Source of the DNA: Hyphomicrobiales bacterium
GTDB taxonomy: Bacteria; Pseudomonadota; Alphaproteobacteria; Rhizobiales; Xanthobacteraceae
Length of the DNA: 64,000 nucleotides
NCBI GenBank assembly: GCA_017305455.1
Contig: JAFKKO010000117.1
Location: 21,824-85,823 of the forward strand
Reading direction: 5' to 3'
The notes under the pieces are model-generated. The model saw nothing but the letters and a program-made list of their open reading frames with translations. It made no database searches and was not told the origin of the DNA. The translations under genes were made by a program, and so were the position numbers. Positions 6,823 through 43,388 of this stretch are shown here, piece by piece. Position 1 is the stretch's first letter. Each line of letters begins with the position of its first letter.

Positions 6823-6840
6823 TATCCCGGCCTGACGTTT

Positions 6841-6918
6841 GTCTCATGGGCTTGTCCCATGGATTTTTCTCATAGGCTTGTCTCATGGGCTTGTCTCGTG
6901 GACGTGCCTCATTTTGCG
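6841..6918. repeat. 13-bp tandem repeat, six units (consensus GTCTCATGGGCTT)
   Basis: The units read gtctcatgggctt / gtcccatggattt / ttctcataggctt / gtctcatgggctt / gtctcgtggacgt / gcctcattttgcg. Units 1 and 4 are identical. The period is not a multiple of 3, and the repeat is intergenic. Confidence 0.85.
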
Positions 6919-40533: not shown

Positions 40534-41751
40534 TTACGCCGTCGCCATCGCCTTGGTCATGTTCTCCGCCACCTTGTCGAGGAAACCGGTGGTCGAGAGC
40601 CAGCGCTGTTCGGCGCCGACCAGCAGCGCGAGGTCCTTGGTCATGTAGCCGGCTTCCACCGTCTCGACGCAGACCCGCTCCAGCGTCTTGGCGAACTTCG
40701 CCAGCGCCTCGTTGTTGTCGAGCTTGGCGCGGTGGGCCAGCCCTTGCGTCCAGGCGAAGATCGAGGCGATCGAGTTGGTCGAGGTCTCGTTGCCCTTCTG
40801 GTGCTCGCGATAGTGGCGGGTCACGGTGCCGTGGGCGGCCTCGGCTTCCACCGTCTTGCCGTCCGGCGTCAGCAGCACCGAGGTCATCAGGCCGAGCGAG
40901 CCGTAGCCCTGCGCCACGGTGTCGGACTGCACGTCGCCATCGTAGTTCTTGCAGGCCCAGACATAGCCGCCCGACCATTTCAGCGCCGAGGCCACCATGT
41001 CGTCGATCAGCCGGTGCTCGTAGGTCAGCTTCTTGGCCTCGAATTCCTTCTTGAATTCGGAATCGTAGATTTCCTGGAAGATGTCCTTGAAGCGGCCGTC
41101 ATAGACCTTGAGGATGGTGTTCTTGGTCGACAGATAGACCGGGTAGCCGCGCGACAGGCCGTAGTTGAACGAGGCGCGGGCGAAATCCTTGATCGAGTCG
41201 TCGAGGTTGTACATGCCCATCGCGACGCCGCCGCCGGGGGCGCGGAACACCTCTTTCTCGATCACCTTGCCGTCCTCGCCGACGAACTTCATGGTCAGCG
41301 TGCCGGCGGTCGGGAATTTGAAATCGGTGGCGCGGTACTGGTCGCCATAGGCATGACGGCCGATGATGATCGGCTTGGTCCAGCCGGGCACCAGGCGCGG
41401 CACGTTCTTGCAGATGATGGGCTCGCGGAAGATCACGCCGCCGAGGATGTTGCGGATGGTGCCGTTCGGCGACTTCCACATCTCCTTGAGGCCGAATTCC
41501 TTCACCCGCGCCTCGTCGGGGGTGATGGTCGCGCATTTGACGCCGACGCCGTGCTTCTTGATGGCGTTGGCGGCGTCGATGGTCACCTGATCGTTGGTCT
41601 TGTCGCGGTGCTCCATCCCGAGGTCGTAATATTCGAGGTTCACATCGAGGAAGGGATGGATCAGCTTGTCCTTGATGTACTGCCAGATGATCCGGGTCAT
41701 CTCGTCGCCATCGAGTTCGACGACAGGGTTCGCTACCTTGATTTTTGCCAT
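40534..41751 (-). CDS. icd: NADP-dependent isocitrate dehydrogenase (homodimeric, eukaryote-like type)
   Basis: [31 protein letters not shown]... shows 405-aa full-length similarity to the IDH1-like subfamily. Confidence 0.96.
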
Positions 41752-41995
41752 GCGGATCGTGCCTTCTGAGAGGAAAATTGCGGCGGGAACGATATTCGCC
41801 GGCGGCTATAGCATCGCGCCTTGCAGTGCGGAAGGCAGCCCAAAGCAGTAGAGCGATGCAGGAGCGGTCATGATCGGCGCCTCTCGCGCAGGGTGATGCC
41901 GCGTATGGCTCTCCGATTCAAAACAATTTCGTAACCCATTTATTATATTATTGATTTTTCTTCGGCTGGAAACTTTTTCCAACTCTCGCAGCGGC

Positions 41996-42192
41996 TTGAA
42001 TCAATCTCTTCACGACTTGATTCAAAGTCTTAAGCAGTTGAATCAACGTGCTGACGACCGGATTCAGATTCTTCAGCTCTTGAATCAAAAACTTCGGCTT
42101 CTGAATCAACCGCCTCACGGGTTAGCGCGAATCCTCGCCTCTTGAATCAAGGTCTTCGATGGGTGATGCACATCCTTCAGCCCTTGATTCAG
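41996..42192. repeat. 21-bp phased tandem array (~10 units) with palindromic core TTGA(A/T)TCAA
   Basis: Units start at 41996, 42017, 42038, 42059, 42080, 42101, 42122, 42142 and 42184. Ten GANTC pentamers lie within 41998-42190. The array sits in a locally AT-rich intergenic island. Confidence 0.9.
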
Positions 42193-42203
42193 AAAGCGAG
42201 CCG

Positions 42204-43388
42204 ATGTCGGGCACCGACAAGACCAAAACGCCGACCCAGCCCGAGGGGCCCATCGTGGTCCTGGTGGAGCCGCAGCTCGGCGAGAACATCGGCATGGCCG
42301 CCCGCGCCATGGGCAATTTCGGCCTGCGGCGGTTGCGGCTGGTGAAGCCGCGCGACGGCTGGCCGAACATGGCGGCGCAGCGCGCGGCGGCGGGGGCCGA
42401 CCACATCCTCGATGCGGTGGAGCTGTTCGACAGCGTCGAGGCGGCGGTGGCCGACTGCTCGCTGCTGTTCGCCACCACCGCCCGCGCCCATGACCAGGCC
42501 AAGCCGGTGGTGGGACCGGAGGCGGCGGCGGGCGAGATCGTCCGGGAGATCGGGCAGGGCGGCACCGCCGCGATCCTGTTCGGCCGCGAGCGCTGGGGCC
42601 TCACCAACGAGGAGGTGTCGCTCGCGGGCCGGATCATCACCTTTCCGGTCAATCCGGCCTTCGCCTCGCTCAACCTCGCGCAGGCGGTGCTGCTGACCGG
42701 CTATGAATGGTTCAAGCAGGCCACCGGCGGCGCGCTGCCATTCGCCATGCCCGAGCGCTCCGAACGCGCCTCCGGCCACCAGATGCAGGCGTTCTTCGAC
42801 AATCTGGTCGCCGAGCTCGACAAGGTCGAATTCCTGCGTCCGGTGGAGAAGCGCGACACCATGCTGGTCAATCTGCGCAACATCTTCACGCGGATGGAGC
42901 CGACCAAGCAGGACATGCACACCCTGCACGGCGTGGTGATGGCGATTGCCGAGGGCCGCAAGGGCCCGGCCAAGGGCGGGGTGCTCGACAGCGACGGCGC
43001 CGAGCGGCTGCGGACCCTGCTCGCCGAGCATGGCGACGGCCGCGGCGGGCAGGAGAGCGGCGGCAGCGTGCGCGGGCTGGCTCGGATGCTGCGGCGCAAT
43101 CCGACCGACGCCGAGCGCATCCTGTGGAAGGCGCTGACCACCGACCGGCGCTTCGCCGCCCAGTTCAAGCGCCAGACCCCGGTGGGGCGGCATATCCCGG
43201 ATTTCGTCTCCTTCATCCGCCGCGTCGCGGTCGAGATCGTCCATGACGGCGAGGCCGAAGTGGTGACGCATGACCGCGCCCGCCGCGGCGAATGGCTGCG
43301 CGAGCGCGGCTACCGGGTGGTGGAGTTGTCCGCCGCCGCGATCGAGCGCGATCTCGGCGTGGCGCTGGAGGCGATCGCCGCGGCGTAG
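42204..43388 (+). CDS. SpoU/TrmJ-like RNA 2'-O-methyltransferase fused to a C-terminal DUF559 (Vsr-like endonuclease fold) domain
   Basis: The N-terminal ~250 aa (VVLVEPQLGENIGMAARAMGNFGL..LRLV.PR; FGRERWGLTNEE; ASLNLAQAV) are TrmJ-like. The C-terminal ~110 aa (ARMLRRNPTDAERILWKAL...FKRQTPVGRHIPDFVSF...VEIVHDG...RGYRVVEL) are DUF559-like. ATG 42204 and the listed 42159 are both possible starts. Confidence 0.75.
   Translation: MSGTDKTKTPTQPEGPIVVLVEPQLGENIGMAARAMGNFGLRRLRLVKPRDGWPNMAAQRAAAGADHILDAVELFDSVEAAVADCSLLFATTARAHDQAKPVVGPEAAAGEIVREIGQGGTAAILFGRERWGLTNEEVSLAGRIITFPVNPAFASLNLAQAVLLTGYEWFKQATGGALPFAMPERSERASGHQMQAFFDNLVAELDKVEFLRPVEKRDTMLVNLRNIFTRMEPTKQDMHTLHGVVMAIAEGRKGPAKGGVLDSDGAERLRTLLAEHGDGRGGQESGGSVRGLARMLRRNPTDAERILWKALTTDRRFAAQFKRQTPVGRHIPDFVSFIRRVAVEIVHDGEAEVVTHDRARRGEWLRERGYRVVELSAAAIERDLGVALEAIAAA

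Follow-up and report, generated by a model that had tools for sequence, protein, structure and literature searches.

Between icd and a trmJ-like gene of a Hyphomicrobiales bacterium (Xanthobacteraceae; contig JAFKKO010000117.1), short palindromes with a central GANTC recur every 21 bp up to the start codon of the trmJ-like gene, and the question raised by this locus is what such an array is for. GANTC is the target of the adenine methyltransferase CcrM, which times the alphaproteobacterial cell cycle. We analysed a stretch of 64,000 nucleotides of this contig (the window, in whose coordinates positions are given unless a related locus is named), together with related loci from other genomes and from metagenomes, which are designated by L and a number. 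With moderate confidence, we favour a function at the level of DNA, namely a GANTC-centred array for cooperative binding by a putative protein in the divergent icd/trmJ control region.

Anatomy of the array

The array (41996-42203, plus strand) consists of ten head-to-tail units, eight of 21 bp and two, unit 7 and the last one, of 20 bp. Eight of the ten open with the 9-bp palindrome YTGAWTCAR, and the other two, units 7 and 9, are degenerate. The consensus unit, derived from the window array and its relatives, reads YTGAWTCAR-nnn-CTTCAS-nnn. GANTC is placed at the exact centre of the repeated dyad TTGAWTCAA, and 10.5 bp separate the centre of the palindrome from that of the directional CTTCAS box. 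As 21 bp make two turns of the helix, the sites are all aligned on a single face of the DNA. Tandem repeat finder (TRF) reported merely 2.5 copies at period 21, because the spacers diverge; a separate repeat search recovered families of 21 and 42 bp.

Units 1-6 (41996-42121) start at 41996, 42017, 42038, 42059, 42080 and 42101, and are kept singly in the related loci L241 and L242. The cores of units 1, 3 and 5 (41996, 42038 and 42080) are all TTGAATCAA, and those of unit 2 (42017), unit 4 (42059) and unit 6 (42101) are TTGATTCAA, CGGATTCAG and CTGAATCAA, respectively. The degenerate unit 7 (42122-42141), at which relatives read GCGAAATCC, has undergone a 1-bp deletion that is private to the window genome; it accounts for the 41-bp step between units 6 and 8 and gave rise to an extra GANTC at 42129. 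Units 8 and 9 span 42142-42183. Unit 8 (start 42142) reads TTGAATCAA GGT CTTCGA TGG, and unit 9 (start 42163) has the degenerate core GTGATGCAC and retains a CTTCAG box; unit 9 of L242, GTGATTCAC, does contain GANTC. The last unit (42184-42203), TTGATTCAG AAAGCGAGCCG, has the tail AGAAAG.GAG, which from its position, and from its presumed complementarity to the 3' end of 16S rRNA, is probably the ribosome-binding region of trmJ. The tail TTGAATCAGAAAGTGA(A/G).. is found immediately 5' of the trmJ ATG in nearly all related loci. Homologues of trmJ (391-398 amino acids) cover 100% of the query from ATG 42204, indicating that trmJ starts there and, therefore, that the array ends at the start codon.

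A first-pass annotation of the window, made from the sequence alone, had described most of this layout. The unit starts that it gave proved to be correct on re-reading the sequence, units 7 and 9 are degenerate as it had stated, and its ten GANTC positions are exactly those returned by our pattern search. It had placed the array in an AT-rich island, and the GC content is indeed 0.40-0.41 at 41900-42100, compared to about 0.6-0.8 in the flanks. The flanking genes that it had named, icd on the minus strand and a SpoU/DUF559 gene on the plus strand, were likewise found by open reading frames (ORFs) and Pfam.

The palindrome TTGAWTCAA occurs five times in the window, every time within the array, whereas 0.2 occurrences are expected, and none of 100 shuffles reached five. 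Just three TGAWTCA sites were found outside the array in the 64 kb. Over the full window, GANTC is strongly under-represented (123 sites versus 338±18 expected from dinucleotide-preserving shuffles). Given this avoidance, the ten sites within 210 bp are measured against an expectation of 0.37 from the window background (Poisson P~1e-11); local composition gives 0.78.

Conservation, rearrangement and related modules

In the first of two scans, one genome per species was searched for two palindromes 21 bp apart, and the matches were mostly chance ones in AT-rich genomes. Among the matches listed, the seven from Afipia, Bradyrhizobium and Tardiphaga that carried icd or trmJ were all at the icd/trmJ locus; an eighth from this family (L093, Afipia massiliensis) is internal to a large ORF and appears to be due to chance. 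The second scan, of metagenomes with a stricter two-unit pattern, yielded at least 120 loci, of which nearly every high-GC one adjoins the trmJ-DUF559 gene and/or icd. More than 80 motif-found Nitrobacteraceae loci among the matches listed carry the array at the icd/trmJ locus. Conservation of the array, which the first-pass annotation had left to a pattern search of relatives, was thus found at the icd/trmJ locus, and the presence of the same array in many independent assemblies excludes the assembly artefact that it had considered.

Both scans demand perfect cores, so that most related loci are motif-selected. Loci were, therefore, also fetched by protein identity alone, and the array was present in seven of the eight. 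Ten units were counted in L241 and in L242, eight in L274, seven in L277, four or five in L276, ten phased units in Afipia (Oligotropha) carboxidovorans OM5 and three in B. cenepequi. In L241 and L242, whose TrmJ proteins are 96% and 92% identical to that of the window, all ten units are conserved one by one, as is an AT-rich block that precedes the array (41913-41955, plus strand; CCGATTCAAAACAATTTCGTAACCCATTTATTATATTATTGA, with GANTC at 41915-41919). The intergenic DNA flanking the block and the array cannot be aligned.

Mean pairwise identities were calculated for 45 Bradyrhizobium-type sequences. The identity of the palindrome cores was 0.949, a value inflated by the fact that two of the three cores are required by the search pattern, and that of the whole array was 0.865, compared to 0.881 for codon positions 1 and 2 of trmJ and 0.702 for its 4-fold degenerate sites. 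Unit 1, on which the search pattern places no demand in a typical Bradyrhizobium-type match, nevertheless hardly varies. Of 213 steps between units in 73 distinct arrays, 188 measure 21 bp, and the exceptions range from 18 to 25 bp. Three units are present in 60 of these 73 arrays and four to nine in the others, ten being found in the window clade and in OM5, so that copy number ranges overall from 3 to ~11 between lineages. Degenerate units retain GAWTC, whereas positions 1, 2, 8 and 9 of the palindrome drift, indicating that selection acts on GANTC as the core. The array is a genuine element and is subject to strong purifying selection.

The array also persists where trmJ has moved away. One Afipia group (L041, L111 and others) has acquired emrA/emrB-like genes precisely at the junction of the last unit with trmJ. 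Beside icd, five to nine units persist together with the AT-rich block, and trmJ, 3 kb away, is preceded by a new TTGACC promoter-like block. In L276, where nothing has been inserted, such a block likewise separates trmJ from the array. Since the array persists away from trmJ, it is not merely a leader of this gene. In Bradyrhizobium, other genes are found between icd and the array, which stays with trmJ and faces a conserved hydrolase gene.

Several further features of the spacer between icd and trmJ were recorded. The spacer is an insertion hot spot, as exemplified by the emrA/emrB-like genes at L041:2700-5840. The promoter-like block, AAATGTCTTGACC-N~17-AACTGCGTTACGGCAGGG, is conserved and is found directly 5' of trmJ in the lineages in which array and start codon are not adjacent (L276:1420-1500; L041:5740-5840; L125, L142, L178, L195, L205 and L207). 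In Afipia sp. Root123D2 (L074:4842-6230), a gene for an FkbM-type methyltransferase splits the array into four and eight units, and at L219:200-2560 an insertion with major facilitator superfamily and LysR genes is flanked by a ~60-bp duplication comprising the last unit and the 5' end of trmJ.

A module of similar architecture was found in Rhizobiaceae. In a scan of viral contigs, the two-unit motif was present in three high-GC prophage-like contigs among the matches listed. Gene transfer agent (GTA)-like or prophage head clusters of this kind have the gene order portal, intergenic region, DUF6107 protein, head protease and major capsid, and named DUF6107 homologues come from Rhizobium, Pararhizobium, Neorhizobium, Shinella and Sinorhizobium. 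The intergenic region is conserved over ~280 bp (e.g. L249:2767-3042), and GANTC is fixed in it at -114, -123, -153, -174 and sometimes -195 from the DUF6107 ATG, the last three positions being 21 bp apart. Twenty GTA-type regions (L252-L271) were then fetched by protein. GANTC occupies the two main 21-bp-phased positions in 17 and 15 of them, respectively, whereas the full palindrome is present in merely 4 and N can be G; a CTTCA box lies between the phased GANTC sites in 14. Of 60 pairs of outer palindrome positions tested, only 39 are complementary. The module is oriented away from the nearest gene, 140-200 bp upstream of which it lies; this arrangement suits a DNA site and not a sense-strand leader. 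The likeness to the Nitrobacteraceae array is one of architecture (GANTC, 21-bp phase and CTTCA box) and not of alignable sequence. The module is accompanied by a tight GANTC pair, GAATCTTTTGAATC. The same intergenic region contains a conserved CTGACG-N4-CGTCAG palindrome, and in some GTA-like clusters a ribbon-helix-helix antitoxin and a ParE-like toxin are encoded between the portal gene and the GANTC module (L244:714-1291).

Perfect TTGAWTCAA pairs exactly 21 bp apart were also seen at unrelated loci of two Bosea species (L056:3708-3737 and L090:5081-5110), upstream of a gene for an EamA-type transporter; the palindromes are identical in both species and the 12-bp spacer has diverged. Further pairs at this distance are at L094:6219-6248 (Mesorhizobium), L086:1888-1917 (Pararhizobium) and L009:2527-2556 (Ensifer). 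These two-unit sites in other high-GC Hyphomicrobiales may be acted on by the same putative reader. An unrelated array of five 21-bp units, TTGATTCAAACATCAACATAC, with two TCAA/TTGA-type boxes per unit, is present at L028:4125-4229 in a metagenome-assembled genome (MAG) of Polyangia with a GC content of 0.74.

A DNA-level reading and its rivals

A DNA-level array for cooperative binding is favoured because each dyad has a methylation site at its centre, units recur at exactly two turns of the helix, selection is focused on GANTC and the array is indifferent to reading frame. Moreover, phase slips of 1-3 bp and varied positions and orientations relative to genes are tolerated. From this architecture, we infer that a dimeric or oligomeric DNA-binding protein would occupy the sites cooperatively, from the AT-rich block to the ribosome-binding site of trmJ, and that its occupancy would set, with either sign, the transcription of trmJ and possibly also that of the divergent gene (icd, or the hydrolase gene in Bradyrhizobium). 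Binding and N6-adenine methylation of the central GANTC could affect each other: either methylation would alter the affinity of the protein, or the bound protein would keep CcrM from the sites. Expression would in that way be coupled to the passage of the replication fork, the stage of the cell cycle or a heritable methylation pattern. In B. diazoefficiens, 99.8% of GANTC sites are methylated, and ccrM is bll2509 (PMC4840208). In Caulobacter and Sinorhizobium, bound MucR, CtrA and PhoB shield promoter GANTC from CcrM (PMC5172544). The first-pass annotation had proposed a methylation-gated or cooperative-binding regulatory array; as far as this implied a real, selected, non-coding element with a GANTC core and a regular phase, the proposal holds, whereas the analogies to origins, centromeres and GcrA that accompanied it do not.

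In mechanism, the closest counterparts would be the Dam/GATC switches (pap, agn43, opvAB) and the protein shielding of GANTC in alphaproteobacteria. In the Dam/GATC switches (pap with Lrp; agn43, opvAB and gtr with OxyR), methylation sites are central in repeated regulator-binding sites, the promoter-region sites are regularly spaced, and binding and methylation are mutually exclusive. The array would resemble them in that GANTC is central in repeated dyads, which are predicted binding sites; it differs in its methylation site (GANTC, the CcrM target, versus GATC) and in having up to ten units with a strict 21-bp period versus two to six sites, and nothing points to bistability. The shielded GANTC sites of MucR, CtrA and PhoB (PMC5172544) involve the same methyltransferase and the same bacterial group, but are scattered in AT-rich promoters, unlike the phased palindromes described here. 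By inspection, the array units are without TA steps, in contrast to MucR targets, of which such steps are characteristic. CcrM/GcrA promoters of Caulobacter (ctrA P1, mipZ, ftsZ and others) also have GANTC in the promoter region, where it is read according to its methylation, and ten such sites lie upstream of trmJ; but in Caulobacter one to few sites lie near -35/-10, whereas the array spans 60-210 bp and can lie upstream of the promoter or away from it.

In anatomy, the array is closest to cooperative operator arrays (ARG boxes, parC, iterons). The ARG boxes of ArgR (21 bp centre to centre), the metboxes of MetJ, ParR-parC of R1 and iterons are phased dyads or repeats that are bound cooperatively; tandem operator arrays have a period of one or two turns and often overlap the promoter of the regulated gene. 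Their sequences are unrelated to that of our array, which, unlike them, has a central methylation site and no linked regulator, rep or par gene. SeqA binds clusters of hemimethylated GATC (E. coli oriC and the dnaA promoter) with sites on the same face at whole-turn spacing, as its cooperative binding requires, but the conserved sequence of the array extends past the methylation site and the locus is not at an origin. We know of no SeqA homologue or reader of hemimethylated GANTC in alphaproteobacteria. The array may be placed with regulatory DNA bearing methylation sites, a known kind, of which this form is new. No published description of it was found in open-access text, in which the 9-mers matched just primers and short hairpin RNAs.

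A narrower proposal, to which we assign a rather low probability, is that the array is a docking platform for a reader of GANTC methylation in Hyphomicrobiales, analogous to SeqA or to the Lrp/OxyR-Dam systems. The protein would polymerise along GANTC sites two turns apart, and its binding would need or prevent adenine methylation. In a sharper version of this proposal, the dimeric TrmJ-DUF559 fusion would itself be the reader. If the docking platform existed, the expression of a tRNA-modification enzyme in Nitrobacteraceae and of the capsid genes of the GTA-like clusters in Rhizobiaceae would follow fork passage or a heritable ON/OFF pattern of methylation. As a rule, only a small fraction of cells makes gene transfer agents, and the link to a tRNA 2'-O-methyltransferase, together with the GTA-like module, suggests regulated or heterogeneous expression of both. 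With up to ten GANTC sites on one helix face, a family-wide distribution and cores conserved above the neighbouring coding sequence, the array offers a natural bait for methylation-sensitive DNA-binding proteins and a natural test for Dam-style epigenetic switches in alphaproteobacteria. Even an ordinary operator would constitute a new regulator-operator pair across Bradyrhizobium, Afipia and Tardiphaga.

Several observations weigh against the cooperative-binding array that we favour. No conserved regulator gene is linked to the array in the loci examined, and a dedicated binding protein for apparently one locus per genome would be unusual. A spacer of 203 bp between icd and trmJ without array or GANTC was found in L275, a Xanthobacteraceae MAG, indicating that the element is dispensable. 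This locus (L275:1301-1500) has trmJ-DUF559, with a TrmJ 79% identical to that of the window, and provides a natural 'deletion' control. The search pattern with two perfect cores inflates the conservation of those two units, and it is the protein-fetched loci that give the unbiased view. The array contains no match to the IHF site (WATCAANNNNTTR), the CtrA box (TTAA-N7-TTAA) or the DnaA box, and GcrA, which the first-pass annotation had put forward as a reader, does not fit by inspection: its extended motif is YGAKTCK, and TGAWTCA has A at one K position on either strand. To our knowledge, GcrA is the sole well-described reader of methylated GANTC, and its known targets are single sites. The central base of the palindrome alternates between A and T in 44 of 60 steps between neighbouring units, for which a symmetric dimer reading the dyad would have no need; the alternation could stem from duplication in 42-bp units or from a reader that is itself asymmetric. 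Finally, CTTCAS invariably occurs on the sense strand of trmJ, and the array runs up to the ribosome-binding site; both features would also suit a role at the level of RNA.

Such an RNA-level role is the main rival, possible in our judgement but doubtful. The array would lie in the 5' untranslated region of trmJ or in a short independent RNA, in which A-type and T-type neighbours would form alternative 9-bp hairpins with CUUCAG loops, and these hairpins would either serve as the target of a protein, perhaps TrmJ itself, or open and close access to the ribosome-binding site. Besides the fixed strand of CTTCAS and the last unit running into the ribosome-binding site, the A/T alternation speaks for it, as it permits perfect pairing between units. 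In Bradyrhizobium, the pairing of unit 1 with unit 2 can be continued across the spacer as far as a C-UUCG-G loop; the helix has 88% of cells paired, and its covariation score was reached by 7 of 500 shuffles, a level that structureless related sequences can attain in the method's own trials. The helix between units 2 and 3, however, is without covariation, RNAalifold gave -4.9 kcal/mol with zero compensatory pairs, and the complementarity of spacers is at chance in 153 distinct pairs of neighbouring units. Folding of the window array is more stable than that of shuffles (z=-3.6), but this holds equally for the opposite strand (z=-4.0), as expected for any palindrome array, and the common three-unit leader is no more stable than shuffles (z=0.08). 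A search of Rfam left nothing above noise in the window region, and four related loci gave no match at gathering score. Moreover, the array persists where it has no sense gene downstream and where a separate promoter-like block follows it, and the GTA-type module is antisense to genes and keeps GANTC while only 39 of 60 outer position pairs are complementary. Two further RNA schemes were set aside. Sequestration of the ribosome-binding site by CUUCA:UGAAG pairing is absent from the window clade, and its pairs are invariant and hence uninformative; a mimic of an anticodon stem-loop was considered by inspection only. The RNA signal is weak or absent throughout. That TrmJ-DUF559 binds the array as its own operator, a pair of DUF559 domains contacting each GANTC dyad, is a specific version of the favoured cooperative-binding array and appears unlikely. 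SPOUT methyltransferases act as obligate dimers, a HinfI/CcrM site forms the centre of the dyad and DUF559 has a restriction-endonuclease-like fold; every Nitrobacteraceae array found adjoins, or ancestrally adjoined, the fusion gene. On the other hand, the array is retained where trmJ has moved away with its own promoter, L275 has the fusion and no array, and the GTA-type clusters with the similar module have no known link to DUF559.

A coding function is very unlikely. Frame 1 of the consensus unit is open and would encode the heptad LNQxLQx, as a coiled-coil micro-protein (a 64-amino acid ORF lies at 41951-42145), as a leader peptide coupled to trmJ or as an N-terminal extension of TrmJ. 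The variable positions form codon-sized blocks, the TTG/CTG and CAA/CAG changes are synonymous, the 18-bp step of one clade preserves the frame, and most Bradyrhizobium forms end it with TGA 1 nt before the trmJ ATG. However, this TGA is replaced in ~11 of 49 sequences, and the frame relative to the ATG varies by lineage (stop 1 nt before, stop overlapping, in frame or out of frame). The frame is lost at steps of 20, 22, 23, 41 and 44 bp, and conservation of the units is the same on both sides of such a step. No conserved start codon was found at a usable Shine-Dalgarno spacing, the ORF has no Pfam match, and the reverse strand is equally open. Third positions within GANTC are invariant, whereas the 'x' codons vary at all three positions, and the N/I alternation is a radical amino-acid change that yet preserves the palindrome. 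The heptad protein, a coupled upstream ORF, the N-terminal extension, programmed frameshifting and a Gln-codon sensor were all rejected, as the frame is inconsistent. A functionless variable number tandem repeat kept by descent, with which the variable copy number (3 to ~11) and the lineage without an array would agree, is still less probable: conservation of the cores exceeds that of non-synonymous positions in the gene next to them, while adjacent intergenic DNA has diverged beyond alignment, and the units are orthologous one to one between species instead of being homogenised. Least probable, and hardly tenable, is an iteron-type replication origin or a plasmid-like centromere (parC/parS), the analogy drawn by the first-pass annotation. 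The contiguous 21-bp direct repeats in helical phase, the two conserved blocks one turn apart, the adjacent AT-rich block and the methylation sites recall such elements. Nevertheless, there is no rep, parA, parB, parM or parR gene in the window region or in eight related loci with called genes, no DnaA box TTATCCACA in the array even at one mismatch, and nothing similar in a BLAST search of plasmid and phage records. In addition, most genomes have just three units, which end 12-13 bp before the start codon, and the locus was found at ~0.70, 0.38, 0.12 and 0.60 of four multi-Mb contigs, the start points of which are unverified, indicating that it is not tied to one chromosomal position.

Known motifs and repeat families were compared as well. 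The FNR/FixK box, the Cra operator, PaaX, the ARG box and the Ros box differ from the array in spacing or sequence by inspection. Dispersed repeats (repetitive extragenic palindromes, REP, or bacterial interspersed mosaic elements, BIME) were dismissed, as the five TTGAWTCAA sites are all in the array and the high-GC matches listed are nearly all at one locus, and the published consensus sequences of Br-REP1/2 are different (PMC5082802).

Flanking genes and upstream elements

The left-hand neighbour of the array, icd (40534-41751, minus strand), encodes an NADP isocitrate dehydrogenase of 405 amino acids (Pfam Iso_dh, E=5e-64); it is divergent from the array and 86-97% identical across related loci, and a look-up of its exact protein sequence found no record. 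The trmJ-like gene on the right (42204-43388, plus strand) encodes 394 amino acids, comprising a SpoU/TrmJ RNA 2'-O-methyltransferase (PF00588) and a C-terminal DUF559 domain (PF04480). The DUF559 part, which is PD-(D/E)XK endonuclease-like, matches PDB 3HRL, an 'endonuclease-like protein', as the closest solved structure. The fusion of a SpoU methyltransferase with DUF559 was found, with both domains, in 120 of the 120 best homologues. Other genes near the array encode TauE and a Na/H exchanger.

A promoter search by scan and by eye returned a lone sigma-70-like match, TTCAAA (41917-41922)-18-TATTAT (41941-41946), which is a match to the consensus only and is not conserved in relatives. Blocks related to the AT-rich block (GATTCAAACGATTCG..TAACCCCATTGATTTATAAGG) precede the array in Afipia-type loci. 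The Afipia arrays are also preceded by a GANTC pair, GATTCAAACGATTC, related to the one that accompanies the GTA-type module, of which the window retains one of the two sites. Elsewhere in the window, at 6839-6912, TRF detected a 13-bp tandem repeat, TTGTCTCATGGGC, with 5.7 copies and 75% matches.

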